The position numbers and the translations under genes are program-made. From positions 69,330-133,329 of the forward strand of contig JBDTZG010000009.1 in NCBI GenBank assembly GCA_040005235.1: a stretch of 64,000 bases of DNA, in the 5' to 3' direction. How positions within the stretch are numbered: the first letter of the stretch is position 1; each line of letters begins with the position of its first letter. The notes below the pieces were generated by a model that was not told the DNA's origin, ran no database searches, and worked only from the letters and a program-made list of their open reading frames with translations. This DNA is from Acidobacteriota bacterium. GTDB lineage: Bacteria > Acidobacteriota > Thermoanaerobaculia > Multivoradales > UBA5704. Shown one piece after another: positions 3,543-27,051 of the stretch.

Positions 3543-3639
3543 GATGGATGGCCTCCTAGGAGACCATCTTCTCAGGAGCGCCGTCTGCGAGTCATTCTTG
3601 GTTGTTGCGGCGTCCCACAAGACCGCGTTTTGCCGCCTC

Positions 3640-8529: not shown

Positions 8530-9839
8530 TACCCCCCCTCCACCCCGACGGTCACGCCCGCCGCTGCCATAAAAACCGCCGGCGAGGCCAGGCGTTCGTT
8601 GATCCGCTCCACCTGTTCGAGCGTGCTCGCCGCGAGATCCGGCTCGCCATGCCAACGAAATAATTTGTGCGCCTCTTCCAGCTTGGTGAGCGCGGGGCCG
8701 AAGATGCCGAGATGGGCGAGCGCGTTCGCCTGGTTGGCGAGTAGACGAGCGTAGCCGAGCGGATCGAAGGCGCGATTGCGATGTGCGAGCAGCTGCTCGT
8801 AGATCTCGACCGCCTGGACAAGGTTTTCTTGCGGATGAGACGAAGGCAGGTACTGAAGGGCGTTCGCCAGATTCAGCTGGGCGCTCGACCAGGCTTCCGG
8901 GAAGAGCTCCGGGGTCCAGACCTTGAGCGCCTCGCGGAACGATTGCACGGCGATCCCCAAGCGCAGCTGGGAGCCCCCGCCGCTCATCGGCAACGACAGA
9001 TAGGCGAGACCGAGATTGTTCTGGGCGAGGGCGTAGCTCTCCGCGCCCTGTTCGAGCGACAGACCGGAGTGGATCGCCGCCTGGTATGCCGAGACCGCTT
9101 CGAGCAGGCCGGAGCGATCCCCCGCCGCAGTATCTTGAAGCAGCTGGCCGAGCGCCAGGTAGAGAGCGGACCGGACCGGCGACCGGCCCCCCCCCGGCGC
9201 GGCGGGCACCAGCGCGATGCCTAAACGCAGCGCCGCAAGCGCCGCCTGGCGATCGGGGTCGGCGCCGTCGGCGAGCAGCGCCGCCTTCTGCGCCAGAAGC
9301 TGCGCGGCGAAGGTCGGCGAGGCGGCACTCACCGCCGCGATCCCCCGGTCGAGCGAGGCGAGGGCCTGGTCGGAGCGTCCGGCTTCCATTTCGGCGGCAG
9401 CCCGGACCATCCAGGCGACGGCGGCGACGGTCGGCATCTCGGCCGCCTCGGCGTCCGGCAGGCAGTCGCTCTCCCCCGCGGCGAAGGCCGCGCAGGCGAT
9501 CAGCCGACCGAGGTCGCCCGAGAAGAGCGACGGCAGCCGCGCGAACGCGGCGAGATCCCCGGACAGGACGAACCGGTCATAGGCGGCGACCGGATGATTC
9601 GGCAGCTCCAACACCGCGAGCGCCGCCGCAAGGTCGCCGCTTGCCGCCTGCCGGTAGAACTCCCACTCCACCGGCAGCGGGCCGGAAAGATCACCCGAAA
9701 GCAACCGCGCCAGGGCCGAGGCGGCCAGCGGCGAAGCACTTTCGGGCAGGAGCAGAAACCCCGCGGGAGGCGGCAGAATGCCGAGCGGTTGCGGGCCGAC
9801 GGAAAGGGCGAGCGACGGAGCGGTCGAGGGTTGCGTCAT
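8529..9839 (-). CDS. TPR-like repeat protein (hydrogenase-cluster accessory)
   Basis: YALAQNNLGLAY, AWSSAQLNLANAL and YARLLANQANAL repeats; ATGA-coupled start MTQPS. Confidence 0.85.
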   Translation of the reverse strand: MTQPSTAPSLALSVGPQPLGILPPPAGFLLLPESASPLAASALARLLSGDLSGPLPVEWEFYRQAASGDLAAALAVLELPNHPVAAYDRFVLSGDLAAFARLPSLFSGDLGRLIACAAFAAGESDCLPDAEAAEMPTVAAVAWMVRAAAEMEAGRSDQALASLDRGIAAVSAASPTFAAQLLAQKAALLADGADPDRQAALAALRLGIALVPAAPGGGRSPVRSALYLALGQLLQDTAAGDRSGLLEAVSAYQAAIHSGLSLEQGAESYALAQNNLGLAYLSLPMSGGGSQLRLGIAVQSFREALKVWTPELFPEAWSSAQLNLANALQYLPSSHPQENLVQAVEIYEQLLAHRNRAFDPLGYARLLANQANALAHLGIFGPALTKLEEAHKLFRWHGEPDLAASTLEQVERINERLASPAVFMAAAGVTVGVEGG

Positions 9840-10190: not shown

Positions 10191-10709
10191 TCAGTGTCCG
10201 CCCGCCAGCTCCGCGAGGAGGAGCGGAGCGAGCCTGCGCATCGCGGCATCGACCGGCGGCGAAAGGGGGGCGCCGAGCTCCAGCGACTCGGCTTCGATCA
10301 GGTAGGCGGTGATCTTTTGGGGGTACTCGTCCTTGAGCAGCCAGCGGGCGAAGGCGAGCGCATGATCCCAGCGGAAGGAATGGAGGTTCAGGCCTTCGAG
10401 CGGCGGGAGGCTCTCGACCTCTTCGCCCGGCAGCCGGAAGATCGCACCCGGCTCGCTGCCGCTGGAGCAGGCATCGACCAGGATCACGTGCGGCACGCCG
10501 CGCATTTGAAACGCCACGTCCATGCCCCCCGTGCCGCCGTCCGCGCAGCGGATGCCGAGCGGCAGCCCCAGCTCCCACAGGTGGCGGATGAAGATCGGCC
10601 CCACCGCGTCGTCGCCGCGCAGCAGGTTGCCGCAGCCGACGATCAAGGCCCGAACCTGCTCGGCCGAAGGCGGAGCGGTCCCCGTGGCTTCCGCGATGCG
10701 TTCGATCAC
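10191..10709 (-). CDS. Hydrogenase maturation endopeptidase (HupW/HybD family)
   Basis: GCGNLLRGDDAVG, DGGTGG, LVDA and H motifs; probable GTG start. Confidence 0.93.
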   Translation of the reverse strand: MIERIAEATGTAPPSAEQVRALIVGCGNLLRGDDAVGPIFIRHLWELGLPLGIRCADGGTGGMDVAFQMRGVPHVILVDACSSGSEPGAIFRLPGEEVESLPPLEGLNLHSFRWDHALAFARWLLKDEYPQKITAYLIEAESLELGAPLSPPVDAAMRRLAPLLLAELAGGH

Positions 10710-10729
10710 TTTTGGACCTTCATCTGCAG

Positions 10730-12376
10730 CTAGCCTAACTCTCCGACGCGGAAATTCGACAATTCGCGGCCGGACTTGGCGTCGTAGACGTGGACGGTGC
10801 AGACCAGGCACGAGTCGAACGAGCGCGCCACGTGCCCCATCTCGACCGGATCGGTCGGATCGGCGATCCGCGAGCCGAGAAACGCCTGTTCCATCGGCCC
10901 CAGGGTGCCGACCCGATCGCGCGGGCCGATGTTCCAGGCGGTCGGCGTGACCACCTGATAGTTTTCGATCCGGCCGTTGCTGATCACGATCCAATCCGAC
11001 AGCGAACCGCGCGCCGCCTCGGTCGAGCCGAATCCGCGCCCCTCCGCCAGCTCTTCGGGCTTGTTGTAGAAGCGTCCGTGCAGGTCGAGCTCGTCGAGCC
11101 ACTTGCGGGAGAGCTGAACATATTTCGCCGCCTCGTGCATGCGCGCCATCACGCGCACCAGCACGCTCGGCCCCACCGTGCCTACGGCGTCCAGGAACAA
11201 CGGATCGAAATCCTGATGCGCCGCGGCGTTCGGCCTGCCCGCGACCACCTGACGCGCGAGCGGCCCGGCTTCGAGCGGCATCGCCCCCTTACCCGGCACC
11301 TCGTAGCGAGGCGACTTCGCCCAGCTGTATTTGCCCTGCTTGTGGCCATCGAGCGGATCGATCGGATCGGTCTCGCCCTGCCAGGGATGCAGGAACCGGT
11401 CGCCCTTGTAGAACGAATGCGACGTGTCCTCGCGCACGTTCAGGTGGTCGAAGTCGTGGAAGCCCGCGCCGTCGTAGATTCCCGAGCGGTTGATCAGCGC
11501 GTCGTTCCTCCCCTCGATCGTCGGGTGCTCGTACAGCTCGGGCCGGAAATAGGTCCCGGTCGCAAGGTACGCGCCGCAGCCGGCGCCGAATTTGTCGAGC
11601 CCGGCGCGCAGGCCGAAGCGCAGGAACAACCCGCAGTCCGAGTTGCGCTGGCTGTCGTTTTCATCCGCCCAGGCGAGGACGTCCGCCCAGGTCTTGTTTT
11701 CCAGCCAGCGCTCGACCGAACAGCCGAGCCAGACCTTCTCCAGCCAGTCGCGTTTCCAGTTGTCGAGGATCGCGATCGCCCGCGTCACGTCCGAGAGGGT
11801 GGGCGCGCACATCACGCCGCCCGGAATCATGAAGCTCGAATGCGGCCATTGGCCACCGAACAGGGCGTAGACCTCGACCGGCTTGCCCGACATGGTGACG
11901 CCGCGCTCGTAGCTGGTGCCGACGAACGGCGCGAAGCGCCGCACCACCTCGTCGTACTCCGGCAGATGGGCGTAGTTCTTGTTCGTCAGATCGATCGCGA
12001 ACAGGGCATAGAACCAGCGCGGAATCGATTGCAGGGTTTCGCACGCCTGGGCGATGTTCCGCACCAGCGTTGCGTTTCTCGGGACGTGGGTTTTCCATGC
12101 GGTGTCGAGCGCATAGACCGCCTTGTAGAGATGGCTGCCGCCGCAGATGCCGCAGATCCGCGGGGTGACGATCAAGCCGGCCTGAGGATCCTTGCCGCGC
12201 AGGATGATCTCGAAACCGCGGAACATGCTGCATTCGGTCCACGCGTCGGTGACCACCCCATCCTTGACCTTGACCCGCAGGTCGAGGTCCCCCTCGACGC
12301 GGCCCAGGGGACTGATCCGAAGGTCGATGGGCAGCGGCAAGAGGCCGGGCGGATCGGTTGCGACCGCGGTCGTCAT
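10730..12376 (-). CDS. hucL: [NiFe]-hydrogenase large subunit, group 2a (Huc-type)
   Basis: GRVEGDLD, L1 motif PRICGICGGSH, GGQWPHSSF, L2 motif SFDSCLVCTVH, followed by a cleavable C-terminal tail. Confidence 0.95.
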   Translation of the reverse strand: MTTAVATDPPGLLPLPIDLRISPLGRVEGDLDLRVKVKDGVVTDAWTECSMFRGFEIILRGKDPQAGLIVTPRICGICGGSHLYKAVYALDTAWKTHVPRNATLVRNIAQACETLQSIPRWFYALFAIDLTNKNYAHLPEYDEVVRRFAPFVGTSYERGVTMSGKPVEVYALFGGQWPHSSFMIPGGVMCAPTLSDVTRAIAILDNWKRDWLEKVWLGCSVERWLENKTWADVLAWADENDSQRNSDCGLFLRFGLRAGLDKFGAGCGAYLATGTYFRPELYEHPTIEGRNDALINRSGIYDGAGFHDFDHLNVREDTSHSFYKGDRFLHPWQGETDPIDPLDGHKQGKYSWAKSPRYEVPGKGAMPLEAGPLARQVVAGRPNAAAHQDFDPLFLDAVGTVGPSVLVRVMARMHEAAKYVQLSRKWLDELDLHGRFYNKPEELAEGRGFGSTEAARGSLSDWIVISNGRIENYQVVTPTAWNIGPRDRVGTLGPMEQAFLGSRIADPTDPVEMGHVARSFDSCLVCTVHVYDAKSGRELSNFRVGELG

Positions 12377-12407: not shown

Positions 12408-13379
12408 CTAGACGACGAACATGTCTTCCTTCGACCATTTCGGAGCCGCGATGCGGGCGGCGGCGGCGTGCGCCATGTAGGACACGTGATCGGTGCCTAC
12501 GGGCACTTCCTTGGGAATCGTGCCGCTGATCTTCTGGGTCTTGAACACGGTGCCGGGCCTCAAGTCGTGGAACGGAAACTCCGGCTCGGTGCAGCCGGTG
12601 CACGGCATGCCGGCGCGCGTCTTGCTCGACTGGCGGTTCCACAGGATGCGGTTGCACGGCGAATGGGTGAGCGGGCCGCGGCAACCGAACTCATAGAACA
12701 GACAGCCGGTGCGGGTGCCCTGGCCGAATTCCATCGTCGCCTGCTTGTACTCGAAGAATTGGACGCGGGTGCAGCCGGTCTGGGTGAAGCTCTTGAAGAA
12801 GGTGATCGGGCGCTGGAGGTCGTCGAGCGCGATGTCGGCCGCTCGGCCGGAGGCGATCGCCACCAAAATCTGGGTGATCCAGTCGGGATGGGAAGGGCAG
12901 CCGGGAATGTTGATCACCGGCAGGCCCCACTTGGAACGGAAGCCGGCGCCCAGGAATCCGCCATGGTTGCGCTTCAGGTATTGGAGGCCGATGTTGTCCA
13001 CCGGATTCGGTTCGGTCGCCGGAATGCCGCCCCAGCAGGCGCAATCGCCGATCGCAACGACCGCGTTGGCCTGCGGCGCCAGATCCCGCACCCAGTCCTT
13101 CATCGGCCGATCGGCGAACATGTTGTAGCGGCCGGTGCCGTTGGGCCCTTGGATCACCGTCCCCTCGAACACGAAGATGTCGAGCGGCCGGGCGCCGGAG
13201 GCGCAATCGTTGAAGATCTTCTTGGCGTTGTCGCCCATCTCCACCCCGAGCGACGGGTGCCATAGGATGTCGATTCCGAAATCGGTCACCAAATCGCAGG
13301 CGCTCGGCTCGTCCGCGTTCAAAAAGGACATGGTGTTGCCGCTACACGCACCACCTTGAAGCCAGAGCACGGTCGCCAT
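12408..13379 (-). CDS. hucS: [NiFe]-hydrogenase small subunit, group 2a
   Basis: WLQGGACSGNT (Asn at the proximal-cluster position), GDCACWGG, PGCP, TQTGCTR and GMPCTGC; no Tat signal; AAGGAG RBS. Confidence 0.95.
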   Translation of the reverse strand: MATVLWLQGGACSGNTMSFLNADEPSACDLVTDFGIDILWHPSLGVEMGDNAKKIFNDCASGARPLDIFVFEGTVIQGPNGTGRYNMFADRPMKDWVRDLAPQANAVVAIGDCACWGGIPATEPNPVDNIGLQYLKRNHGGFLGAGFRSKWGLPVINIPGCPSHPDWITQILVAIASGRAADIALDDLQRPITFFKSFTQTGCTRVQFFEYKQATMEFGQGTRTGCLFYEFGCRGPLTHSPCNRILWNRQSSKTRAGMPCTGCTEPEFPFHDLRPGTVFKTQKISGTIPKEVPVGTDHVSYMAHAAAARIAAPKWSKEDMFVV

Positions 13380-13505: not shown

Positions 13506-14144
13506 CTACCCCCCCGCACCCCGAGGTATCAGGATCAAACCTCGCGCGACCGCCGCGCGTACCAGCTCCACCTGATTGTGGGCGTCGAGCTTCTGCATCA
13601 GGTTCGCCCGGTGGCGGGTCGCCGTGTGAGGGGAGACGCCGAGGATCTCGGCCACGTGCTGGGTGGTGTGACCGTCGGCGATCAATTGAAGGACATCGCG
13701 CTCGCGGGCGGTGAGGCCGGAGCGGGCGGTTTCGAGCGCCTTGACGTGGGCGAAATCGATGCTGCGGCTGACGTAACGTTCGCCGGCGAGCACGGCGTCG
13801 AGCGCCAGGAACAACTCGTCGTCCATCGCGTGCTTCAGGAGGTAGCCGTCGGCCCCGTCGGCGAGCGCCTGGGCGATGAATTGCGCGTCGTCGTACATCG
13901 AGAGCACCAGGACCCGCGTGCGCGCTCCACCCGCGCGCAGCCGACGCAGCGCCTCCAGGCCGTCGAGGCGCGGCATCGAAAGGTCGAGCAGCAGTGCGTC
14001 GGGGTCCGTGTCGCGCACGGCGATCAGCGCGTCCTCGCCGTTGCCGGCTTCGGCCACCACGGTGAAACGGCCGTCGGTCGCGAGCAGGGCGGCGAGCCCC
14101 CGGCGCACCAGGGCATGATCGTCCGCGAGCACGATGCTAAACAC
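13506..14144 (-). CDS. NarL/LuxR-family response regulator
   Basis: LADDH, LLDLSMP and GYLLK receiver motifs; C-terminal LTARE...HRANLMQKL helix-turn-helix. Confidence 0.95.
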   Translation of the reverse strand: MFSIVLADDHALVRRGLAALLATDGRFTVVAEAGNGEDALIAVRDTDPDALLLDLSMPRLDGLEALRRLRAGGARTRVLVLSMYDDAQFIAQALADGADGYLLKHAMDDELFLALDAVLAGERYVSRSIDFAHVKALETARSGLTARERDVLQLIADGHTTQHVAEILGVSPHTATRHRANLMQKLDAHNQVELVRAAVARGLILIPRGAGG

Positions 14145-15927
14145 TGTCGCCTCCTCCCCACGGGACCGAGACCTCGACCGACGTTCCCTCGCCCGGCAGG
14201 GTCACGATCGACAGGGTGCCGCCGAACATTCCGACCCGCTCGCGCATGCCGAGCAGGCCCAAGCCGTGACGGACCGTGCCGGGATCGAAACCGCTGCCGT
14301 CGTCGGCGACCGTCAGGCGGAGCCGTCCGCCTTCGGCGACCAACGACAAGCGGACCCGCAACGCGTCCGCGTGGGCCGCCACGTTGGTGAGCGCCTCCTG
14401 CGCGATGCGATAGATCGCGATCTCCGCCGCCGACGCGAGAGAGGCGGGGATCGGCGGTAGGTCGAGATCGACCTCGAAGCCGGCGCGTACGCTGTATTCG
14501 ATCGCCAGCTGGCGCAGAGCGACCTCCAGCCCGAGCTGGTCGAGAGTCGGCGGACGCAGGCGGCGCGCCAGGTCTTTGATCCGCGTCGTCGCCGCGTTGA
14601 CCTGCTCGCGCAGGTGATCGAGCTGCTCGCGCAAAGCCGACTGCTCGACCGGCACCAGGCGGGCCATCACCTGCAGGCCGAGCTTCACCCCCACCAGCGC
14701 CTGGCCCGCCTCGTCGTGCAGCTCGCGCGCGATGTGCTGGCGCTCGTCCTCCAAGATCGTCACGTTGTGCGCCGAGAGCGCCCGGATCTCCTGGCTCTTG
14801 CCTTCGAGGTCGGAGAGCAGGCGGGTGTTTTCGATCGCCACCGCGGTCGTGTTCGCGAGCGATTCGAGAAACATTGCGTCCTGCCAGGAAAACGGCGGCT
14901 GGTCGACCCCCCGATGCAGCTCGAAGAAGCCGAGCACCCGGCCGTCGCTCGACTTGATCGGAATGCAGACGGCGCGCCCGACCGCGAAGCGCCGGGCGAG
15001 ATCGAGATCGGCGAGCGGATCGTGCGGGTAGTCGTTGGCGAGATAGGGAAACTCGATCTCCAGCAAGTAGCCGGCCAGGCCCTCGCCGCGCCGGAACCGC
15101 CGCGGCCCCTCGCTCCAACCAGCGCGATGCCAATAACCCGTGGATACCATTTCGAGCTCGCCCGAAGGCGACAGCTCGGCGAGCCCCGCCAGCCCTCCGA
15201 CACCTTTCAAAAAGCGCGCGGCGTGCTCCACCAGATGACGGACCAGCTCGGAGGAATCGAGGTGGGCGTTCACCGCCGCGCCGAACGCGAGCAGCGCTTC
15301 GAGTCCGGTCGACCAATCCCCCAGCCGTTCGATTAGAAGCGCGCGCTCGAAGCCGACCGCCGCCTGGAGCGCGATCGTCTCGGCCAAACGATATTCGAGC
15401 GCGCCGAACGGCGCCGGCCCCCGGCGGTTGACCGCGAGCAGCACCGCGACCGTGCGCCCCTGGTTGTCGAGCGCCGGTACCGCCAGCGCGTTGCGCCAGC
15501 CGAGGTCGCCGAGCTGCAGGCGGTAGGCAACCTCGTCGCGCGGCGCGCAGGCGAGCACGCCGCGCCGTTGGCGTGCTACCTGGAGCAGTAGAGCGAGCGT
15601 CGGCTCGTCGGGCGGCGGCGCCGGAACGCTCTGGCCGACGACGTAGACGCCGATCGCCCCCAGAGCCTGGTCGTCGGTGACCGCGACCACCGCCCGGCTG
15701 GCGTTCAAAGCGATCGCGAACGCGCGCGCGAGCGACGTGGCGAGATCGGGGCTCGACAGCTCGTTGACCACGGCCCGCGCGGTGCCGTGAACCCGTTCGA
15801 TCGCCGCCAGAATCCGCCCGCTCTCGGCCCGCGCCGCGGCCGGGTTCCAAACCTCGGTATCGGGCCGCTCTTGAAGCGTGCCCAAGGAGGGCATCGGCGG
15901 GGCGAGAATGAACGGGTCGTAAGGCAT
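14137..15927 (-). CDS. Cytoplasmic GAF-GAF sensor histidine kinase (HisKA_3)
   Basis: Two GAF-like segments; ERQHIARELHDEAGQ, QEALTNV, DDGSGF and GLGLLGMRER; no clear transmembrane helix. Confidence 0.92.
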   Translation of the reverse strand: MPYDPFILAPPMPSLGTLQERPDTEVWNPAAARAESGRILAAIERVHGTARAVVNELSSPDLATSLARAFAIALNASRAVVAVTDDQALGAIGVYVVGQSVPAPPPDEPTLALLLQVARQRRGVLACAPRDEVAYRLQLGDLGWRNALAVPALDNQGRTVAVLLAVNRRGPAPFGALEYRLAETIALQAAVGFERALLIERLGDWSTGLEALLAFGAAVNAHLDSSELVRHLVEHAARFLKGVGGLAGLAELSPSGELEMVSTGYWHRAGWSEGPRRFRRGEGLAGYLLEIEFPYLANDYPHDPLADLDLARRFAVGRAVCIPIKSSDGRVLGFFELHRGVDQPPFSWQDAMFLESLANTTAVAIENTRLLSDLEGKSQEIRALSAHNVTILEDERQHIARELHDEAGQALVGVKLGLQVMARLVPVEQSALREQLDHLREQVNAATTRIKDLARRLRPPTLDQLGLEVALRQLAIEYSVRAGFEVDLDLPPIPASLASAAEIAIYRIAQEALTNVAAHADALRVRLSLVAEGGRLRLTVADDGSGFDPGTVRHGLGLLGMRERVGMFGGTLSIVTLPGEGTSVEVSVPWGGGDSV

Positions 15928-15931
15928 CGAA

Positions 15932-16648
15932 TCACATTGCCGCGGCCGCGATTTCGGGTGGGCGCGCGGCAGCCGAGGTGAAATCCGGTCCGAGGCGGCG
16001 GCGCTCTTCGAGGAACGCCAGCCACTCCTCCATCCCGAAGCCGGTCTTGGCGGAGGTGACGATCACCGGCAGGCCCGGGCGCACCGCTTCGATGTTCGCG
16101 CGCGCCGCCGCCTCGTCGAATTCGCACGGCAAGGCGAGATCCCACTTGGTGATCAAGGCGAGGTCCGCTGAATTGAAGATCCCGGGGTATTTGAGCGGTT
16201 TGTCCTCGCCTTCGGTCACCGACAGGAGGACCACGCGCACCGCCTCGCCCAGGTCGTAGCTCGAAGGGCAGACGAGGTTGCCGACGTTTTCGACGAACAG
16301 GTAGGCGAGGCCCGCGAGCGGCCAGCCTTCGAGGTGCGATTCGACCCACTCGGCTTCGAGATGACAGCGCCCGTGGGTGTTGATCTGGCGCACCGGCGCG
16401 CCGCTCGCCGCCAGGCGGCGCGCGTCGTTGTCGGTTTCCAAGTCGCCGACCAGAGCCGCCACCGGCACGCTGCGCTTCACCAGCTCGGAGAGCGTCCGTT
16501 CGAGAAACGCGGTCTTGCCGGTGCCCGGGCTCGACACCAGGTTGAGGGTCAAGACGTCGGCGGCGCGGAACCGCGCGCGCAGGGCGCGGGCGGTCTCGTC
16601 GTTCTTGTTCAGGATGTCCCGCCGAAGCTCAAGGATGCGAGTGGTCAT
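15932..16648 (-). CDS. hypB: Nickel-insertion GTPase HypB
   Basis: SSPGTGKT, CHL, ENVGNLVCP, EGEDKPLKYP and TKWD. Confidence 0.96.
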   Translation of the reverse strand: MTTRILELRRDILNKNDETARALRARFRAADVLTLNLVSSPGTGKTAFLERTLSELVKRSVPVAALVGDLETDNDARRLAASGAPVRQINTHGRCHLEAEWVESHLEGWPLAGLAYLFVENVGNLVCPSSYDLGEAVRVVLLSVTEGEDKPLKYPGIFNSADLALITKWDLALPCEFDEAAARANIEAVRPGLPVIVTSAKTGFGMEEWLAFLEERRRLGPDFTSAAARPPEIAAAAM

Positions 16649-17055
16649 AAAGCCGTTTCCCCGCTTGCCAAGCTGTCCGCGCGCCCGTCGGTGGCCGTCT
16701 CGTCTTCGAGGGAATCGACCTCGATCGCCTCGATGTGCAGCTCGCGCCCCTTGCGGATGTCGCCGCTCGGAGTACCGCAGACCGTGCAGCGAAACTGCGT
16801 CGGTCCCGGCAACTCCACGTCCCGCGCACAGGTGGCGCAGTGGACGATCAAGGGTACCTCGCGCACGACCAGCCGGGAGCCTTCGAGCAGTGTATCCCGG
16901 ACCGCGATGTCGTAGCAAAATAGAAGCGAATCCACCGAAACGCCCCCGAGCACGCCTACCGCGATGCGCACTTCGCGCACCCTTGGCGACCCGGCCCGCT
17001 CCACCACCGGAAGCGCCAGCTCGACCAGCGAATGGGCGATCGACAGCTCGTGCAT
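16645..17055 (-). CDS. hypA: Nickel metallochaperone HypA
   Basis: MHE N-terminus and two CxxC motifs. Confidence 0.96.
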   Translation of the reverse strand: MHELSIAHSLVELALPVVERAGSPRVREVRIAVGVLGGVSVDSLLFCYDIAVRDTLLEGSRLVVREVPLIVHCATCARDVELPGPTQFRCTVCGTPSGDIRKGRELHIEAIEVDSLEDETATDGRADSLASGETAL

Positions 17056-17066
17056 GTTGCGGCGGA

Positions 17067-17855
17067 TCAGCCGCCGAGCCCCCGGCCGTAGCTCTTCGCC
17101 ACGTAGAGCACGAGGCGAACCGTAGCCTGGATCTCGGGGTCCTTGAGCGAGCGGTACAGCTCGAACAGGCCGACCGGCTTGGCCGGATGGGCGAGAAAGT
17201 CCTGGTAGCTCGCCGCCACTGTGCGCCCGATCCGGACGAGCACCTCGACGGTCTGGCGATCGAACATTCCCGCCTCGGCGAGCACCTCGCCGGCTTCGAC
17301 CAGGCCGGGCAGCTCCGAGATGATGCGGCGGACCCGCTCGGGGTCCAGGTCGGGAATCGCGGTCTTTAGATCGGACATGCCCTCGGCCACCGATTCGATC
17401 ACGGCATCGCTCCGGCGCAAGAAGCCGTCGAGCGAATCGAGCAGAAAGGCGATCACCTCGACGTTGCCGAGCAGCGAGGAGAGCGCCTGGATCGTCTTGG
17501 GATCGCCGAGCTTTTCGAGCAGGCCGGAGTCGAGCAGCCGGGAAACCTCGGGCCGGGCCGCCAGGTCCGCCATGCGCCCTCCCGTCCGCAACAACTGGGG
17601 CACCTTGGCCATCAGCTCGCCGCTTCCCTCCTCCCCCACCATGTGGCGCAGCTCGCCCATCCCTTGGGCGACGGAGTCGGCGACCACCTCGGCGCGACGG
17701 AGAAACCCTTCGAACGCCTCGACGGAGAAGACGATGACGTCCAGCCGATCGAGCAGGCGGTTCAGCGAGTCGACCGTCGCCGGCTCGCCAAGCCTCTCCA
17801 GCAGGCGCTCCTGGGGGGTGAGCACCCCGGCGCTGCCGTCACCGCCTGTCGCCAT
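17067..17855 (-). CDS. HucM-like helical scaffold (DUF1641-type C-terminus) with an internal tandem duplication
   Basis: All-helical; LDGFLRR motif; C-terminal GLFELYRSLKDPEIQ; first gene of the huc/hyp unit; GGGAGG RBS. Confidence 0.78.
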   Translation of the reverse strand: MATGGDGSAGVLTPQERLLERLGEPATVDSLNRLLDRLDVIVFSVEAFEGFLRRAEVVADSVAQGMGELRHMVGEEGSGELMAKVPQLLRTGGRMADLAARPEVSRLLDSGLLEKLGDPKTIQALSSLLGNVEVIAFLLDSLDGFLRRSDAVIESVAEGMSDLKTAIPDLDPERVRRIISELPGLVEAGEVLAEAGMFDRQTVEVLVRIGRTVAASYQDFLAHPAKPVGLFELYRSLKDPEIQATVRLVLYVAKSYGRGLGG

Positions 17856-18016: not shown

Positions 18017-20314
18017 ATGCCTTCCGACCCGCCGATCCGCCACCGCCTGAGTGTCGGCGGAATCGTCCAGGGGGTCGGGTTTCGCCCTTTCGTTTACTCC
18101 CTCGCGACCCGCTACGGCCTGGGAGGCTCGGTGAGGAATGTGGCCGGGGGCGTGGCGATCGAAATCGAAGGGCCGGCGGAGAACGTCGCCGCGTTCGAGC
18201 GCAATCTCTCCGCCGAGGCGCCCCCGCTCGCGGCGATCGACGAGATCCGCATCGAAGAGAGGACGCCGGGCGGAGAGCGCGGGTTCAAGATCGAAACCAG
18301 CGGCGCCGCAGAGGCCGTGCCGACTCCCGTCTCTCCCGATGTCGCCGTCTGCGACGCCTGTCTCTCGGAGCTGTTCGACCCGGCGGACCGCCGCTATCGC
18401 TACCCGTTCATCAACTGCACCGACTGCGGCCCGCGCTTCACGATCATCGCGTCGCTCCCCTACGACCGGCCGAGGACGACGATGCGCGCGTTCGCGATGT
18501 GCTCTCGCTGCCAGGCAGAATACGACGATCCGAAGAGCCGGCGCTTCCACGCCCAGCCGAACGCCTGCCCGGAATGCGGGCCTTCGCTCACCTTTCGAGT
18601 CGCCGGACGCGGCTCCGCCCCTCAGCCGGAGGCGCTTCTTGCCGCCGGCCGCGCGCTCGATGCAGGGGAGGTCGTCGCGATCAAAGGGATCGGCGGCTTC
18701 CACCTTGCCTGCGATGCCACCTCCGATCGCGCGGTCGCCGAGCTGCGTCGCCGGAAAGGACGCGGCGACAAACCGTTCGCCGTGATGGTGCCGGACCTCG
18801 ACGTCGCGCGCCGGTTGGCGATCCTCTCCGCTGATGAGGAACGCCTTCTCGCCGGCCGCGAACGGCCGATCGTGCTAGTCGAAAAGCGCCAGGGCCTTCC
18901 TCTCTCGGAACTCGTGGCGCCCGGCCAGGCCCGGCTCGGCCTGCTGCTCCCCTACTCGCCGCTCCACCATCTGCTGCTCGCCGGCCGAGTCCTGGTCATG
19001 ACTTCCGGCAACCGGAGCGAAGAGCCGATCTGTCGAGAGAACGACGAGGCGCTGGAACGGCTTGGCGATCTTGCCGACGCGTTTCTGCTCCACGACCGGG
19101 AGATCCATGCGGTCTGCGACGACTCGGTGATCCGAGTTTTCGAAGAGCGCGAGCTGCCCCTGCGCCGCTCGCGCGGCTACGCGCCCTATCCGTTGCGGCT
19201 TCCTTTTCCTTCTCCCCCGCTGCTGGCAGTCGGCGCGGAGCTGAAAGCGACGTTCTGCCTGGCGCAGGACCGCAGGGCGTTTCTGTCCCAGCACATCGGC
19301 GACCTGGGCAATCTCGAAACGCTCACCGCGTTCGAGCGCGCGGTCGAGCACCTTTCCGATCTCTTCCGCATCGAGCCCGAGCGAATCGCCTGCGATCTCC
19401 ATCCCGACTACCTGGGGACCCGCTGGGCCGAGCGGCAAGCCGCCGGGCGCGGCCTGCCGCTCGTCCGCGTGCAGCACCACCACGCGCACATCGCCGCCTT
19501 GATGGCCGAGCACGGCCTGCCCGGCGACCGGCCGGTGCTCGGCGCAAGCTTCGACGGCACCGGCTACGGGCACGACGGCGCGATCTGGGGGGGAGAGATC
19601 CTGCTCGCCTACTACGCCCGCGCCGAACGGATCGCCCACCTGCGCTACGCCCCGCTGCCGGGAGGGGATGCCGCCATCCGCCACCCCCGGCGGATGGCAC
19701 TCGCCCACCTGGCCGCCGCGGGGATCGAATGGCATCCCGAGCTTCCCCCCGTCGCGGCGACGCCGGAAGGCGAACGGCGGATCCTGGCGCGGCAGCTGGC
19801 GACCGGATTCGGCACCGTGCCCACGAGCAGCATGGGCCGTCTGTTCGATGCCGTCTCCGCCCTCGCCGACCTCGCCCAGGAATCGCGATTCGAAGGCCAA
19901 GCGGCGATGGCGCTCGAAGCCGCGGCGGAGGGCTCGACGGGCGGCGAAACGGGCGGCGGGACCTATCGTTTCGCGCTGCGCGACGAGGACATCCTGCGCC
20001 TCGATCCGACCCCGCTGCTCGCGGCCGTGGTGCGCGACCGGCTGCGTGGCGAGGATCCCGGAAAGATCGCCGCCCGCTTTCACACCGCGGTCGCCGACGC
20101 CCTGGTCGCCGCCTGCCTCCACGGCAGGAAGAAGACCGGTGTTTCGACCGTCGCCCTCTCGGGCGGGGTGTTCCAAAACGTCCGGCTGCTGCGCCTCGCG
20201 AAAGACGGTCTCACCCGCGCGGGCTTCGCGGTGCTCACCCATCACAAGGTGCCGCCCAACGACGGCGGCTTGGCGCTCGGCCAGGCGGTGATCGCCGGGG
20301 TCCATCCGGCGTAG
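18017..20314 (+). CDS. hypF: Carbamoyltransferase HypF
   Basis: GIVQGVGFRPF, two zinc fingers, KGIGGFH, QHHHAH, DGTGYG and NDGGLALGQ. Confidence 0.97.
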   Translation: MPSDPPIRHRLSVGGIVQGVGFRPFVYSLATRYGLGGSVRNVAGGVAIEIEGPAENVAAFERNLSAEAPPLAAIDEIRIEERTPGGERGFKIETSGAAEAVPTPVSPDVAVCDACLSELFDPADRRYRYPFINCTDCGPRFTIIASLPYDRPRTTMRAFAMCSRCQAEYDDPKSRRFHAQPNACPECGPSLTFRVAGRGSAPQPEALLAAGRALDAGEVVAIKGIGGFHLACDATSDRAVAELRRRKGRGDKPFAVMVPDLDVARRLAILSADEERLLAGRERPIVLVEKRQGLPLSELVAPGQARLGLLLPYSPLHHLLLAGRVLVMTSGNRSEEPICRENDEALERLGDLADAFLLHDREIHAVCDDSVIRVFEERELPLRRSRGYAPYPLRLPFPSPPLLAVGAELKATFCLAQDRRAFLSQHIGDLGNLETLTAFERAVEHLSDLFRIEPERIACDLHPDYLGTRWAERQAAGRGLPLVRVQHHHAHIAALMAEHGLPGDRPVLGASFDGTGYGHDGAIWGGEILLAYYARAERIAHLRYAPLPGGDAAIRHPRRMALAHLAAAGIEWHPELPPVAATPEGERRILARQLATGFGTVPTSSMGRLFDAVSALADLAQESRFEGQAAMALEAAAEGSTGGETGGGTYRFALRDEDILRLDPTPLLAAVVRDRLRGEDPGKIAARFHTAVADALVAACLHGRKKTGVSTVALSGGVFQNVRLLRLAKDGLTRAGFAVLTHHKVPPNDGGLALGQAVIAGVHPA

Positions 20315-20642: not shown

Positions 20643-23600
20643 ATGCGCCTTTTAGCCCGTCTCGCCCTCCTCGCTCTCTTTGCTTCAACATTCTCGCTTC
20701 CCCTGGCCGGGCAGGTGCCGGTCCAGGTCGCGGATTTGAATACGACGCGGTACGACAACGGCGACTCGTATTTTTTCCGCAGCGAATTCGTCGAATTCGG
20801 CGGCCTCGTATATTTCACCGCGTCCGATGTTCTGCATGGGCTGGAGCTGTGGAAGACCGACGGCACGGAGGCGGGCACGGTGCGCCTTACCGACCTCTGC
20901 CCCGGTTCGTGCGATTCGTTTCCGCGCAATCTGACCGTCGTCGGGGGTTCGATCTACTTTTCGGCGGACGACGGCGCGCACGGGTTCGAGCCGTGGATTA
21001 CGGACGGCACGACCGCCGGGACGCGGATGATCCGCGACACCGTGCCCGGGCTGGGTGGCAGCTTTCCGAATCTGTTGCGGGTGCTGGGTGGGCGGGTCTT
21101 CTATTCGGCGAGCGACCCTGATGCCGGTTCGGAGCTTTGGGTGACCGACGGCACGGCCGGCGGCACGGGGCGATTGGTCGACATCCAACCCGGACCGAAC
21201 AGTTCGCAGGCGATCCCTTGGCAGGTCGTCGGTACCAATCTCTTTTTCTCCGCGGACGACGGCGTCCACGGTGTGGAGCTTTGGGCCACCGATGGCACCG
21301 CGGCGGGAACGCGGATGGTGCTCGACATTTTTCCGGGCGCCACGGCGTCCCTCTTGGGATTCATTCCGCTACCCGGGCTCAACCGATTCGCCGCGCTCGG
21401 ATCGCGCATTTTCTTTGCCGCCGCCGACGCGACGAACGACTACGAGCTTTGGGCAAGCGATGGCACCGCGGCGGGAACCACGCGGGTCGCCGACATCCAT
21501 CCCGGCCCGGACGCCTCCGTGCCAACCTACTTCGAGGTTCTAGGATCGATCCTCCTCTTCAAGGCCGGTGATGGCACGACCGGCACGGAGCTCTGGCGCA
21601 CCGACGGCACGGAGGCCGGCACGGTGGCGGTCAAGGATATTTACCCCGGCACCACCGGATCCGACCCCTACGAGCTGACCCGTTTCGGCAGTGCGCTTTA
21701 TTTTCATGCCAACGACGACGTGCATGGGCGCGAGCTGTGGAAGTCCGACGGTACCGAAGCCGGAACCGCCCTGGTCGCGGATATCCGGCCGGGCGTCGAT
21801 TCCGGGCTCCAGCTCTTTTACAGCCCGCACAGTTTGACGCCCGTCGGCTCGCGGCTGCTCTTCTTTGCCGACGACGGAGTCTCCGGCAACGAGGTGTGGG
21901 CGACCGACGGCACCCTGGCAGGCACGGCGCAGGTCGCCGATCTCAATCCGGGTTCCGCTCACGCGGACGGCGGCAGCTTCGTCGGCGGCTTCGAGCTCCG
22001 GTCGTTTCCGGGGGCCGCTGGTACTTCACCGTCTACGACGGTCCCTACCTCGAAGGACATCATCTCTTTGCCTCCGATGGCACCGCGGCGGGGACGGTTC
22101 GAGTCAAGCGGCTGGGCGACGAGCGCTCCGGCGTCACGCTGCCCCTTTTCGGCCGCGCGCTCGATTCGCGCGCCACGACGGCCTTGGCGAATCGCCTGAT
22201 CTTTTCGGGCGACGACGGCATCCAAGGAGGCGAACCGGCGGCGAGCGACGGCACGCCGACGGGGACCGCGCCCCTGCTGGACGTGAACCCGGGGTTCGAC
22301 ACCTCGACTCCAGGCGAAATGATCACGCTCGGTTCGCGGGCGCTTTTCAGCGCATGGCAGGGCACGGGGGATCGCACCCTCTACGCCACCGACGGCACTT
22401 CGATCGGCACCGTCCCCCTTTCGCCGCTCTCGCAGCCGAGCTACCTCACTGCCCTTTCAGGGACGGCGTATTTTTCCGCCTCCGATACCGCCCACGGCAC
22501 CGAGGTCTGGAAAAGCGACGGCACCCCCGGCGGGACCGGTCTCGCGTTCGATCTCGTACCGGGCACCCCAAGCTCGTTTCCGGCATCCTTCACGCCGCTC
22601 GGCGGCAAGCTGTTCTTCACCGCGTCGGATCCGACCGCGGGCTACGAGCTGTGGGCAACCGACGGCGCGACCGCCAACCGCGTGGCCGACATCGCGCCGG
22701 GGACCGCGAGCGGATTCCCCACCCAGCTCGCCCCGTCACCCGACGACCCTTCCGGCCCCACGATCTTCTTTGCCGCCGACGACGGAACGAACGGCCGCGA
22801 GCTGTGGATCTCCGACGGCACCGCCGCCGGCACCTACCTCGTCCGGGATCTGGCCGTCGGGCCGGCGTCTTCGATCGAAGCCTCACCGATCGACTCGTTC
22901 GCCTCGGAAAGCGGCGCCACGATGGCCACCTTTCCGAGCGGTCTCGCCGTCTTCGCCGCGTCCGACGTACCCGGCGACGAAGAGATCTGGACGAGCGGCG
23001 GGTGGCCGGTCCCGAGCAACACCTTCCGCCTCGCCGACGTCAACGTCGGACCGTCCGGCTCCCAGCCGCGCCAGCTCACGCGGGTCGCTCAGCGAATCGT
23101 CTTCGTCGCCGACGACGGCGTCCACGGCCGCGAGCTGTGGATGGCGACGCAGGACAACCTGACCGCCATGCTGCTCGCCGACGTCTTGCCCGGCCCCGCC
23201 TCCTCGGTGCCGCAGCACCTCACCGGCTTCGGCGGGCTCGTCCTGTTTTCTGCCGACGACGGAACGCACGGCCGTGAGCCTTGGGTGACCGACGGAACGC
23301 CCGAGGGGACTCGACGAATGGCGGACATTGCCCCCGGGCCGCTTCCCTCGAGCCCGTACAACTTCACCGCGGTCGGCGGCGACCTCTATTTCGCGGCCAC
23401 CGACGCGGTCTCGGGCTTCGAGCTCTGGCGCGTGCCGCGTTCGAGCCTGGGCGCGCACCTCACCGCCACCAAGCAGGTGAGCGGTCAGTTCGTGGCTGGC
23501 GGTCTGGTGACCTACACGATCGTCCTCACCAACACCGGGTTGGGCGCCCAGCTCGGCAATTCCGGCGTCCAACTCGAAGATCCGATCTCGCCCAGCCTGG

Positions 23601-24226
23601 CGCTCCAGAGCGTTACGGCTTCCTCCGGAACCATCACCCACGCCGTTCCCGGTCCTCAGATCAACTGGTCCGGCGAGATCCCGGCGGGTGGTCAGGTGAC
23701 GATCACGATGATCTTTCGAGTCCAGCCGGGCACGCCGCCCGAAACGGTGATCACGAACCAGGCGACGGTCCATTTCGATTCCGACGGCGACCTGGTCGAC
23801 GACACGAACATCTCGACCGACGACCCCGGCCAGCCGGGCGGGCAGGACGGCACCACGTTCCGCGTCGGCCTCGGGCTCTACACCGTTCCGCCCTGCCGGG
23901 CGTTCGACAGCCGGCCCGGCTCGCCGCTTTTGAACGGCTTTACGCAGACGGTCACGATCGCCGCGGTCTGCGGCATTCCGGCGACCGCCAAGGCGTTGTC
24001 GTTCAACCTGACCGCGATCGGACCGAACACCCTCGGGTTCCTCCGAGTCTATCCTTCCGGCTCCCCTGCGGGCATCGTCTCTCAGATCAACTTCGGTCCC
24101 GGGCAGACCCGGTCGAACAACGGCATCATCGAAATCGGCACCGACGGAAAAGTGGTGGTCGCCGCGGCGCTCACCTTCGGCGGCGCGGTCGATTTCGTGC
24201 TCGACGTCGTGGGGTATTTCGAGTAG
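20643..24226 (+). pseudogene. Secreted ELWxxDGT-repeat protein with DUF11-like and C-terminal PCR.FDSR domains, split by a 1-nt frameshift near 21990
   Basis: Repeats run in ORF 20643..22199 up to GGF and continue in ORF 21737..24226 from APVVSGGRWYF; may be a sequencing error. Confidence 0.8.
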
Positions 24227-24249
24227 ACCCCAGGGACGACCTGCACCCC

Positions 24250-24270
24250 GGCGGGGGTGAAGCCCCCCGC
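24250..24270 (+). terminator. GC-rich hairpin between the two ELWxxDGT genes
   Basis: GCGGGGG-TGAAGC-CCCCCGC stem; no U-tract. Confidence 0.3.
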
Positions 24271-24303
24271 GGACCGGGCCGCGTCTCCGATAAACTGCAC
24301 CCC

Positions 24304-27051
24304 ATGCGCCGACACGCCCTTCTCGCCTGCCTCGCTTTCGGGCTCGCTCCCCACCTCGGCGCCCAAGTTCTGGCGCCGTATCTCGTCGCCGACATCAACA
24401 CGCAGACCGATGCGATGGGTTCCGATCCGATGCCGATCGGCAGCATCGGCGGCCGGGCGCTTCTGTTGGTCGGGCAGAGGCGAGAGCTTTGGTCGAGCGA
24501 CGGCAGCGAGGCGGGGACCACGCCGCTCGTCCAGACCGCGGGTTTCCTTGCGTTCGCGGCCACCCCGGGCGGGCGCTTCGCCTTTCTCCGCGAGCCGGTT
24601 GGCGAGGGGTACCGCCCGTGGGTTTCGGACGGCACTCCGGCAGGGACCTACCCGCTCTCGGTGGCGCCGTTTGCAGGTTCATTCATGCAGTTTCAGCGGC
24701 GGTGGCTCCACCTGCCGGGCACCGACCGGATCTATTTCGGCGGCGACCGGGATGGCTTGGGTTACGAGCTTTGGACCACCGACGGCACCGCGGGGGGGAC
24801 CCGGCTCGTCGCCGATCTCGCGGCGGGGCCGGACGGGTCAGAGCCGCACGAGCTGACGCTCTTCCGCGGCCGGGTCTATTTCGCCGCCGACGACGGGCGC
24901 GGCGATTCGCTCTGGACCACCAACGGCACGACCAACGGTACCCGGTTGATCTCCGACCCCGACCCGCAAAGCCGGCAGAGCAACGGCCCGCGCTTCTTGA
25001 AGGTGGTCGGACAGACCCTGTTTTACTTTCTCGAACGGCCGGACGGCTGGTCGCTGTGGAAGAGCGACGGCACGAAGCCGGGCACGCGCCAGATCGCCCG
25101 CCTCCCGGTTCGCCCCTCGTCGCAATTCGACCTGCCGCAGGGGGTCTCCCACCTCGGCAAACTGTTCTTCATCGCCGAGCCGGTGACCGGGGGCGGGGGC
25201 GCGCAGCTCTGGGCCTCGGACGGCACGGCGGCCGGCACGCGCGCGGTTGCCTCGTTTCCAACCGGAGACCCTCTCGCGTTCCGGCTCTCCGCGATCCAGC
25301 CGGCGGGGCAGCTGCTGTTCGCCGCGGACGAGCCGGTCCGCGGCCGCGAGTTGTGGACCACCAACGGACTCCCCGGCGGCGCCCGGCTGCTCAAGGACAT
25401 CTGCCCCGGCCCCTGCGACGGCCTGGATTTCGAGCCGTTTCTTGAGTTCGGCGGCCGGCTCTGGCTGCGGGGCTCAACCCCGGCGCAAGGCATCGAGCTC
25501 TGGACCACCGACGGCACGACGGCCGGCACGCGCCTATTCAAAGATCTCTGCCCGGGCAGCTGTTCGGCCCGGCCCCGGCAGCTCGGCCTCATCGGAGCAA
25601 CGCTCTACCTCTCGGCCTCGGACGGCCAGGCCGAGCAGCTCTGGCGCACCACCGGCACGCCCGCCGGCACCGTTCGCCTGACTCAGGCACCCAATGCGCT
25701 CGGCGGAATCCTGCCGATGGGGGCCGTCGCCGGTGCCGCGTTTCTCTTCAGCGGCACCGACCCCGTGCACGGCCGAGAGCTCTGGAAGACGACCGGGACC
25801 GTCGCCTCGACCGGGCTGCTGGCCGACCTCGCCGACGACCCGTCGGCCAGCTCGAACCCCCACGATTTGGTACGGGCGGGAACACGGGCGATCTTTCTCG
25901 CCGACGATGGCGTCCATACGGGGCGCATCTGGTCGAGCGACGGCACGACGGCCGGCACCCGGCGGCTGCCCTTCGAGACCGGAGAGTTCGCCGAAGAGCT
26001 CGGGTTCGCGCATGCGGTCGCCGCCGAGCATTTCGCCTACCTGTACCGGGGGGCCATCCGGGAACGGGCGCTCTGGCGTTCGGATGGCACGACGGCAGGG
26101 ACGTTTCCGGTCACCCCCCCGGGGCTCCGCGAGTCACCCGATGGGGTTGCCCCGTTGGGGCTCGGCGACCGGGCGTATTTCGTCGGCACCGACACCGCGC
26201 ACGGCGAGGAGCTCTGGGCCACCGACGGAACCGCCGCCAGCACCCACCTGGTGGCCGAAAGCCGGCCCGGCCCGCAAGGCTCCCGCCCGGATCACCTGGA
26301 GCCGTTCTTGGGCGGGCAGCTGCTGTTCGAAGCGAGCGACGAGCTGATCAACACCCGGCCCTATGTGACAAACGGTACCGCCGCCAGCACCCGCCTGCTG
26401 GAAGAGGCCTATCCGTTTCTCGGCGAGGTGGGCGAGCACACCCTCGCGGGAAACAAGTTCTTCTTCCTCCGCCCCGACGCCACGCTCTGGGTGAGCGACG
26501 GCACGGCCGCCGGAACCCTGCTCGTTTCGCCGGAAGGCGTGCAGTCCCTCGCGCTCTTTGCCGCGGGCGGCAAGGTTTTATTCTCCGCTAGCTCCGGCGG
26601 CGAGACCTACCTGGGCGTCTACGTGAGCGACGGGACCGCCGCGGGAACTAAGCTCGTCGGCAGCGACTTCGCGTTGGTCCAGAACCTCGCCTACCTCCCC
26701 CCGGTCGGGGTCGGAAGCCGCGTCCTGTTCACCGCCTATCGCCTCGGCGACTTCACCCACCCGGCCCTCTGGGTCACCGGCGGCACCCCGGGCACGACCT
26801 TCCCGCTGATCGAGCCCGACGACTCCGCGAGCCTCCCCACCAACGCCACCCCCTTCGCCGGCCGCCTCCTGCTCCGCAGCAATTCTACCGTCTGGCTCAC
26901 CGACGGCACCCCGGCCGGAACCACCGTCGAGCTGCCCCCCGACCCGGGGAGCGGCCCAGCCCCCATCCTCACCGTCGCCGGAGAGCGGGCGTTTTTCGCC
27001 AGGTTCAGCCCGGAGGCGGGGGTGGAGCTGTGGGCTCTGCGGGTGCCGTGA
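24304..27051 (+). CDS. Secreted ELWxxDGT-repeat beta-propeller protein
   Basis: Signal peptide MRRHALLACL; many ELWxxDGT.AGT repeats. Confidence 0.9.
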   Translation: MRRHALLACLAFGLAPHLGAQVLAPYLVADINTQTDAMGSDPMPIGSIGGRALLLVGQRRELWSSDGSEAGTTPLVQTAGFLAFAATPGGRFAFLREPVGEGYRPWVSDGTPAGTYPLSVAPFAGSFMQFQRRWLHLPGTDRIYFGGDRDGLGYELWTTDGTAGGTRLVADLAAGPDGSEPHELTLFRGRVYFAADDGRGDSLWTTNGTTNGTRLISDPDPQSRQSNGPRFLKVVGQTLFYFLERPDGWSLWKSDGTKPGTRQIARLPVRPSSQFDLPQGVSHLGKLFFIAEPVTGGGGAQLWASDGTAAGTRAVASFPTGDPLAFRLSAIQPAGQLLFAADEPVRGRELWTTNGLPGGARLLKDICPGPCDGLDFEPFLEFGGRLWLRGSTPAQGIELWTTDGTTAGTRLFKDLCPGSCSARPRQLGLIGATLYLSASDGQAEQLWRTTGTPAGTVRLTQAPNALGGILPMGAVAGAAFLFSGTDPVHGRELWKTTGTVASTGLLADLADDPSASSNPHDLVRAGTRAIFLADDGVHTGRIWSSDGTTAGTRRLPFETGEFAEELGFAHAVAAEHFAYLYRGAIRERALWRSDGTTAGTFPVTPPGLRESPDGVAPLGLGDRAYFVGTDTAHGEELWATDGTAASTHLVAESRPGPQGSRPDHLEPFLGGQLLFEASDELINTRPYVTNGTAASTRLLEEAYPFLGEVGEHTLAGNKFFFLRPDATLWVSDGTAAGTLLVSPEGVQSLALFAAGGKVLFSASSGGETYLGVYVSDGTAAGTKLVGSDFALVQNLAYLPPVGVGSRVLFTAYRLGDFTHPALWVTGGTPGTTFPLIEPDDSASLPTNATPFAGRLLLRSNSTVWLTDGTPAGTTVELPPDPGSGPAPILTVAGERAFFARFSPEAGVELWALRVP

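Follow-up and report, generated by a model that had tools for sequence, protein, structure and literature searches.

The hucM gene and its internal repeat

The window analysed here is a stretch of 64,000 nucleotides from an Acidobacteriota bacterium (GenBank assembly GCA_040005235.1, contig JBDTZG010000009.1, positions 69,330 to 133,329), and all coordinates below are those of the window. It holds a gene cluster which, on sequence comparison, is assigned to the Huc-type (group 2a) [NiFe]-hydrogenases, a class of enzymes which oxidise H2 even at the trace levels of the atmosphere. The gene under study is the hucM homologue of this cluster. Its product carries two tandem units where the HucM of the solved Huc enzyme of Mycobacterium smegmatis has one cage segment. 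The gene and the modules of its product are as follows.

17067 to 17855, minus strand: hucM homologue, 262 amino acids, containing two cage units, a single stalk and a single DUF1641 domain
17646 to 17816, minus strand: cage module R1 (residues 14–70), gap-free match to the HucM cage fragment
17535 to 17645, minus strand: inter-cage segment (residues 71–107), a loop and predicted amphipathic helices 82–99 and 102–110, the homologue of what is the first stalk segment in one-repeat HucM
17364 to 17534, minus strand: cage module R2 (residues 108–164), collinear with the single cage segment of M. smegmatis HucM
17190 to 17363, minus strand: stalk or tube region (residues 165–222), placed by profile, PDB match and model
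17082 to 17189, minus strand: DUF1641 domain (residues 223–258), PF07849

The ATG codon of hucM is located at 17855 and the stop at 17067, with GGGAGGA 6 nucleotides upstream of the ATG. A longer frame opening with TTG at 17957 was rejected on the homologue alignment together with this ribosome-binding site; the ATG at 17855 was preferred because M1 is nearly invariant among the 79 aligned homologues.

The first-pass annotation, made from the letters of the window alone, had described a repeat of residues 18–70 at residues 112–164, with 25 of 53 residues identical and a period of 94 amino acids, and the same values were obtained when they were recomputed. Smith-Waterman alignment of the N-terminal 100 residues against the remainder of the protein gave a score of 152, while 1000 shuffles gave a mean of 29.6 with a standard deviation of 5.3 and a maximum of 55. 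The tandem duplication is confirmed. At the DNA level the two repeats share 95 of 159 bases (60%), and the duplication is therefore old rather than recent.

An independent test of the repeat used a profile made from 32 one-repeat homologues only, with the window protein excluded. This profile matched the protein twice, model positions 12–113 on residues 12–114 (90.7 bits, E 5e-30) and model positions 17–174 of 176 on residues 111–260 (148.6 bits, E 9e-48). Because the first match runs as far as model position 113, the first unit carries its own copy of the first stalk segment, and what is duplicated is the cage together with that segment (about HucM positions 12–113). The 53-residue match seen at first pass stands, but as a measure of the duplicated unit it was too short, the unit with its stalk-segment copy being about 95–100 residues long. 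The junction of the two units falls at SGLLE (residues 110–114), which can be read both as closing unit 1 and as opening unit 2. A weak likeness between residues 81–97 and 178–194 and an LPxL..AG motif conserved after each cage both agree with duplication of the stalk piece. The inter-cage segment corresponds to about model positions 70–113 of the one-repeat profile, and P86 is kept in 95% of the alignment rows. From the N-terminal to the C-terminal end, the first cage is followed by a short stalk piece, the second cage, the full stalk and DUF1641. The C-terminus, which had been called DUF1641-like, was matched by PF07849 at residues 223–258 (E 6.4e-11, 42.4 bits against a cut-off of 21); in solved relatives this domain is the membrane-facing end of the tube (PMC13524794). 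An NCBIfam scan of the protein matched no family.

Relationship to the HucM of M. smegmatis

The best match of the window protein among all PDB chains (phmmer) was 7uus_Q, the 188-amino-acid '[NiFe]-Hydrogenase Huc Membrane Associated Subunit', with query residues 102–258 on chain residues 16–186 (E 4.8e-10). HucM homology, at first proposed from the motif and the gene context, is borne out by this match. Residues 102–262 align end to end with the 32 one-repeat proteins, which are 161–188 amino acids long, and the second unit plus the C-terminus is collinear with the whole of M. smegmatis HucM. Both repeats match the cage fragment 7utd_Q without a gap: R1 residues 14–70 on fragment residues 2–58 (E 1.3e-7, 35.3 bits) and R2 residues 111–164 on fragment residues 5–58 (E 2.3e-7, 34.0 bits).

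According to Grinter 2023 (PMC10017518), Huc is HucL8 HucS8 HucM4 with four-fold symmetry, and HucM is required for the oligomer. HucM residues 20–79 are the only part that was modelled in the density, four such segments intertwining as a cage for four HucS2L2 lobes, while residues 80–189 form a tetrameric amphipathic tube reaching the membrane. Tube and chamber carry menaquinone about 94 Å from the membrane to HucS. The picture of M. smegmatis Huc given at first pass, in which four HucM chains scaffold the HucSL octamer and form a hydrophobic stalk for menaquinone, agrees with this description. Each repeat of the window protein is assigned, by its alignment, as the equivalent of cage segment 20–79. 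R1 and R2 each contain a helix equivalent to HucM 63–78, which lies at the menaquinone site beside HucS 298–311 (PMC13433803).

An AlphaFold2 monomer of the window HucM was all-helical (mean predicted local distance difference test score 81, predicted template modelling score [pTM] 0.37), with helices 82–99 and 102–110 between the cages. The hydrophobic moments of these two helices were 0.51 and 0.63, values reached by 1.9% and 2.3% of shuffles, respectively. Over the 12 predicted HucM helices the moments ranged from 0.34 to 0.68 and 7 of the 12 lay above 95% of their own shuffles, which is compatible with a lumen. A Foldseek search of the PDB with this elongated, low-pTM monomer gave 0 matches at E <= 0.001 (best E 1.9). 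Prediction of a complex between HucS and HucM residues 5–104 gave an interface score (ipSAE) of 0.00 in both runs, which were made without control runs and weigh neither way.

Homology over cage, stalk and C-terminus, the DUF1641 domain and linkage to group 2a HucS and HucL were all found for the window protein; the single cage segment per chain was not, there being two here. The protein is almost certainly a functional two-unit HucM.

Number of units among homologues

Homologues were collected by a word-indexed search and an exhaustive search, both of which were ranked with a two-unit query, so that the proportions below favour two-unit forms and are not frequencies. Among the 55 proteins of the word-indexed search, a repeat profile found two units in 52, three in 2 (P0008 and P0023, 365–367 amino acids) and one unit in 1. 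The exhaustive search of 1.84 billion representatives gave 317 proteins at E <= 0.001, and the best 150 of these 317 were used. The raw count over both sets (195 proteins) was two units in 109, one in 73, three in 8, four in 1 and none in 4. Proteins were treated as complete when all repeats were full-length, the first repeat lay no more than 40 residues from the N-terminus and at least 85 residues followed the last repeat; 51 were dropped. The survey of repeat number that had been proposed at first pass thus returned one to four units, with two units in 85 of the 144 complete homologues, one in 53, three in 5 and four in 1. The four-unit homologue P0080/P0197 (515–517 amino acids) is labelled Acidobacteriota and the three-unit homologue P0063/P0200 (384 amino acids) is labelled Anaerolineales.

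A further 25 related loci were taken from named species genomes, where at least 599 stretches matched; they were found with a 12-row two-repeat alignment, which also favours two-repeat forms. Two units were encoded in 20 of these 25 loci, from Thermoanaerobaculia (74% identical), other Acidobacteriota, Gemmatimonadaceae and Gemmatimonas, Bryobacterales, Acidobacteriaceae, and Pirellulales and Pirellula. Three loci encoded three units, two of them of Bryobacter type and one from Anaerolineales with irregular spacing, and two encoded one unit, in Kineosporiaceae and in a weak partial Planctomycetaceae locus. The loci L020 and L022 are among those with multi-unit HucM homologues, and the Bryobacter-type three-unit genes keep the same huc gene order.

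The duplicated form is therefore common in a large cross-phylum subfamily, which is one half of what the first-pass annotation had set against a variant architecture, the other half being a model with the same stalk geometry; yet it differs from the only characterised HucM, which has one cage. The two cages per chain appear to be a variant architecture and not a ground for exclusion from HucM, because unit number spans one to four within the homologous family.

History and conservation of the repeats

A tree of 242 cage units over 58 columns was made with FastTree and midpoint rooted, and its support was modest (0.72–0.92). The subfamily of the window protein comprised 136 units (support 0.92) and was split into R1 and R2 clades. 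In the R1 clade (support 0.72) lay the first units of 57 two-unit and 3 three-unit proteins, along with 4 units from one-unit proteins and 2 second units. The R2 clade (support 0.90) was made up of 60 second units, the second and third units of three-unit proteins (3 of each) and 4 units from one-unit proteins. The separation of the two clades indicates that the duplication predates the spread of the subfamily and that the third unit is a later copy of R2. Elsewhere in the family, independent and younger expansions were found in P0097, P0104, P0108 and P0110, whose own repeats are mutually nearest with 55–68% identity, and in P0063 and P0057, where R2 and R3 are 70% and 67% identical, respectively. 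The 171-amino-acid P0077 and seven further one-unit proteins have an R1-type or R2-type cage of the two-unit subfamily. These one-unit proteins of the main clade may have lost a unit secondarily, or their gene calls may be truncated.

In the alignment of 79 two-repeat proteins, L18/L112, L22/L116, P25/P119, T27/T121, G50/G144, F51/F145 and R54/R148 are conserved in R1 and R2 alike, and the two copies share the pattern L-x3-L-x2-P-x-T ... F ... GFL-x-R. R1 is conserved at least as well as R2, R54 being invariant and L35 and D36 being kept in 97% of the 79 rows. Since both copies keep the same positions, and R1 if anything keeps them better, the extra copy is under selection. That it is a tolerated remnant without function is hardly credible, given this conservation of R1 across phyla and the age of a duplication whose copies now share 60% of their bases. 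Judged by sequence, the two-unit HucM is a conserved, selected cross-phylum variant and not an oddity of one genome.

The huc gene cluster

The other genes of the cluster are listed in the order in which they lie from hypF.

18017 to 20314, plus strand: hypF, divergent from hucM, its placement conserved in related loci; identified by similarity across loci
15932 to 16918, minus strand: hypB, open reading frame (ORF) as listed, the true start probably being internal
14137 to 15927, minus strand: histidine kinase (GAF, HisKA_3, HATPase), within the cluster
13506 to 14144, minus strand: response regulator with LuxR/GerE DNA-binding domain, within the cluster
12408 to 13379, minus strand: hucS, 323 amino acids from MATVLW, gap-free full-length alignment to M. 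smegmatis HucS
10730 to 12376, minus strand: hucL, group 2a [NiFe]-hydrogenase large subunit, match to 7uus_A
10191 to 10733, minus strand: hydrogenase maturation protease of HycI/HupD type, by family scan
7217 to 8113, minus strand: NifU-Rieske protein (HucE-like), by family scan; hucE is named in PMC7784904
6072 to 7220, minus strand: NHL-repeat protein, by family scan
4692 to 6065, minus strand: hypD, by family scan
3640 to 4836, minus strand: hypE-like AIRS protein, by family scan

The order of the cluster is thus hypF (divergent), hucM, hypB, the GAF histidine kinase, the LuxR-type regulator, hucS, hucL and the maturation protease, followed by a tetratricopeptide repeat (TPR) protein, a 181-amino-acid ORF, the NifU-Rieske protein, the NHL-repeat protein, hypD and hypE. 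The same accessory genes are listed for group 2a clusters by Islam 2020 (PMC7784904), who showed activity of the group 2a enzyme in Gemmatimonas aurantiaca; loci of Gemmatimonas type are among those with a two-unit hucM. The TPR-like protein (weak Pfam match, E 0.002) and the 181-amino-acid ORF, which has no family, lie at 8110–9800 on the minus strand between the protease and the HucE-like gene; the TPR protein was found again in Pirellula-type loci and in L011.

The genes hucS and hucL lie 3.6–7 kb from hucM on the same strand. HucL matched 7uus_A (E 1.1e-268), and HucS matched 7uur_D over all 322 positions with no gap (E 1.7e-185). K212, Y229 and Y301, which hold the menaquinone head group in Huc (Grinter 2023, PMC10017518), are invariant in the 18 HucS sequences of this clade and have the same numbering from MATVLW.

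HucS and HucL were found within the fetched flanks of 19 of the 25 related loci. The arrangement of the window, hypF divergent and then hucM-hypB-kinase-regulator-hucS-hucL, is shared by 17 of these 19, although the kinase was undetected in L012; the two Pirellula-type loci have an inverted hucSL arm. The remaining 6 loci comprise three at a contig edge with hypF only, one with hypB only and two without any of the query genes. Of the 25 loci, 19, which come from several phyla, have a LuxR-type regulator between hypB and hucS, and in 18 of the 19 the kinase was detected as well; the pair is likely a dedicated, uncharacterised regulator of this Huc clade.

Besides the Huc genes, no partner is constant beside hucM in the related loci, a result that bears on what R1 binds. 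It could dock a different partner on the same tube, for which HucE (the NifU-Rieske protein), some other quinone reductase and a maturation factor are candidates. DUF1641 scaffolds serve Huc, ForCE, Ndh and, by gene linkage, SQR (PMC13524794, PMC13433803), and the separate, old R1 and R2 clades would have allowed specialisation. We consider this improbable: R1 and R2 resemble the M. smegmatis cage fragment equally well (35.3 and 34.0 bits), only Huc genes are constant next to hucM, and the one DUF1641 gene found in the genome of the window itself sits within the huc cluster.

Among the loci L001–L022 from Acidobacteriota, Gemmatimonadota and Planctomycetota, HucS is 84–94% identical and HucM 25–78%. 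A two-repeat HucM profile matched in 4 of 301 genomes sampled from the phylum of the window, and gave no match in the 24 genomes listed from the same order and class. It matched in 5 of 61 genomes of the Gemmatimonadaceae-type family, 4 of the 5 being full-length two-unit proteins. This sparse and patchy distribution of the cluster suggests lateral spread or frequent loss.

A possible two-tier assembly

The first-pass annotation had offered three outcomes of the duplication, a longer stalk, two stacked tiers of HucSL, or a dimer that mimics the tetramer. The first two both fit a duplicated cage with a duplicated first stalk piece. The reading which we prefer, while holding it at slightly less than even confidence, is that two-unit HucM builds a two-tier assembly, in which the single quinone tube of a tetramer bears two cages in series. 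HucM chains would form a tetramer, as do all solved DUF1641 scaffolds, and each segment would fold as its HucM counterpart does. Outward from the membrane the order would be membrane end, stalk, cage R2, short tube and cage R1, so that the extra N-terminal unit would emerge at the apex of the canonical cage. If each cage holds four HucS2L2 lobes, arithmetic gives HucM4:HucS16:HucL16 of about 1.6–1.7 MDa, compared with 833 kDa for the solved enzyme, and menaquinone would reach both tiers through a single continuous hydrophobic lumen.

The inter-cage piece, being homologous to the first stalk segment and predicted to be helical and amphipathic, speaks for two tiers. So do the match of either repeat to cage segment 20–79, the menaquinone-site helix kept in each, and the positions conserved in R1 and R2 alike. 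HucS is gap-free against that of M. smegmatis and keeps the menaquinone ligands, and therefore no new docking surface is evident. The HucM-binding surfaces would be unchanged and already filled by four modules per eight HucS, so that eight modules would call for sixteen HucS. The units look stackable, because their number varies from one to four with a steady period and expansions recur independently. A precedent is found in the Ndh-Ncp/YjlC tetramers, which stack into filaments with one continuous quinone lumen (PMC13524794, PMC13433803).

Several points weigh against such an assembly. The AlphaFold2 monomer, with its pTM of 0.37, is uninformative on oligomers. The inter-cage segment has only about 37 residues to keep two rings of lobes of about 200 kDa each clear of clashes, and the single hucS gene and single hucL gene give no hint of stoichiometry. 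Conservation of R1 is evidence of constraint and says nothing of the partner. The tree of cage units is based on 58 columns and is moderately supported (0.72–0.92), and the homologue sample was ranked by a two-repeat query, favouring two-repeat forms.

The shortness of the inter-cage segment also favours a different structure, in which the octamer stays the same and its cage is remodelled: R1 would cap the top of the chamber, or would double its wall so that each of the eight HucS has a module of its own. The extra unit is N-terminal and would lie at the apex far from the membrane, where lipid density closes the chamber of M. smegmatis Huc (PMC10017518, Fig. 4g legend), and four HucM chains accompany eight quinone sites in the solved enzyme (PMC10017518), so that a ratio of 1:1 is conceivable. 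Even so, R1 keeps the conserved positions of R2, including the quinone-site helix, which a cap would not need; the unit carries a stalk segment of its own; three-unit and four-unit forms are hard to read as caps; and HucS has neither an indel nor a new surface relative to M. smegmatis. A remodelled octamer is thus plausible but rather unlikely.

The number of modules would also come out at four, as in the solved complex, if two chains with two cage modules each replaced four one-module chains. This is the dimer in place of the tetramer that was proposed at first pass, and it is very unlikely, as each chain has only one stalk and one DUF1641 domain while the tube is tetrameric in Huc and in Ncp/YjlC. 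The duplicated stalk piece lies between the cages and not beside them, three-unit forms cannot yield four modules, and four-unit homologues exist as well.

The two-tier assembly would extend to the family as a whole if HucM is modular, a view which we put forward with reserve. Each unit would then add a ring of four HucS2L2 lobes to one quinone tube plugged into the membrane, giving 8, 16, 24 or 32 catalytic dimers for unit numbers one to four, and the two-tier form would be usual in Acidobacteriota, Gemmatimonadota and Planctomycetota.

Comparison with known systems

The closest known relative is HucM (MSMEG_2261) of the M. smegmatis Huc (7uus and 7utd, chain Q), which is alike over cage, stalk and DUF1641. 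HucS and HucL of the window are very close to the solved subunits as well, with the menaquinone ligands of HucS intact. The M. smegmatis protein has 188 amino acids and one cage segment (20–79), whereas the window HucM has 262 and contains a cage unit with a first stalk segment behind it two times over. MSMEG_2261 is located directly upstream of hucS (PMC10017518), but hypB and a two-component system intervene in the window.

The window HucM belongs to the DUF1641, or 'helical membrane plugin', superfamily. Ncp/YjlC of the Bacillus subtilis Ndh-Ncp filaments (PMC13524794, PMC13433803) has DUF1641 likewise and is a tetrameric tube that scaffolds a quinone reductase and stacks its chambers into one lumen. 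Stacking in Ncp/YjlC is non-covalent, head to tail and between separate tetramers, whereas the units of the window HucM are joined in one chain. Its partner enzyme is a different one and its similarity to the window HucM is marginal, within the DUF1641 region only (9snk_B, E 0.18; 9pxk_E, E 0.38). ForE/YjgD of the formate dehydrogenase ForCE (8rqz) is alike at the DUF1641 C-terminus (E 0.0093, query 194–258); it has no similarity to the cage repeats and again another partner enzyme. Assignment to the Ncp/YjlC or ForE type was rejected, as the matches (E 0.0093–0.38) lie within residues 194–258 only and hydrogenase genes surround hucM. In the group 2e hydrogenase of Acidianus brierleyi, HysM was modelled by its authors as a HucM-like tube scaffold, with a published identity to HucM of 18%; the available text (PMC11018855) mentions no repeat, and HysM is set beside the window HucM by description only.

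Hydrogenase-linked plugin genes have been described as a group 'containing Firmicutes and Actinobacteria', and the phyla of two-unit HucM are not discussed among them in the available part of that paper (PMC13433803). The available parts of PMC10017518, PMC13524794, PMC13433803, PMC10792529, PMC11018855, PMC13098282, PMC12318194, PMC12976888 and PMC7784904 mention no tandem HucM repeat or variable unit number, although longer proteins may be listed in Table S2 and Fig. S2 of PMC13433803, Supplementary Data 4 of PMC13524794 and Fig. S4 of PMC7784904. Within this literature, a two-cage HucM appears to be undescribed.

Other features of the window

On the plus strand at 20643–27051 there is a run of three large ORFs (as listed, of 518, 829 and at most 1256 amino acids) rich in 'ELW.TDGT..GT' repeats, the first of which has a signal-like N-terminal sequence. 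Beyond these repeat-protein genes lies a 956-amino-acid ORF at 27565–30435 on the minus strand. At the left end of the window, the hyp genes are flanked by genes for an HMG-CoA reductase (21–1478, plus strand) and an HD-domain protein (2961–3926, minus strand).

Significance

Huc is the model enzyme for the extraction of energy from air. The only structure solved is of an actinobacterial Huc, whose HucM has one cage. The two-cage HucM occurs widely among soil phyla, and a larger complex may result from it. Should at least two cages be encoded in most Huc clusters of the abundant soil phyla, the solved 833-kDa octamer may not be representative of the enzyme that removes much of the atmospheric H2 consumed by soils. 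A covalently stacked scaffold would be a second route to long quinone-filled tubes, the first being the non-covalent filaments recently found for the Bacillus NADH dehydrogenase, and it would offer a design rule for hydrogenase assemblies of higher valence. If the two-tier assembly is true, the number of HucM units would be a genetically encoded multiplier of the capacity to oxidise atmospheric H2 per membrane area.

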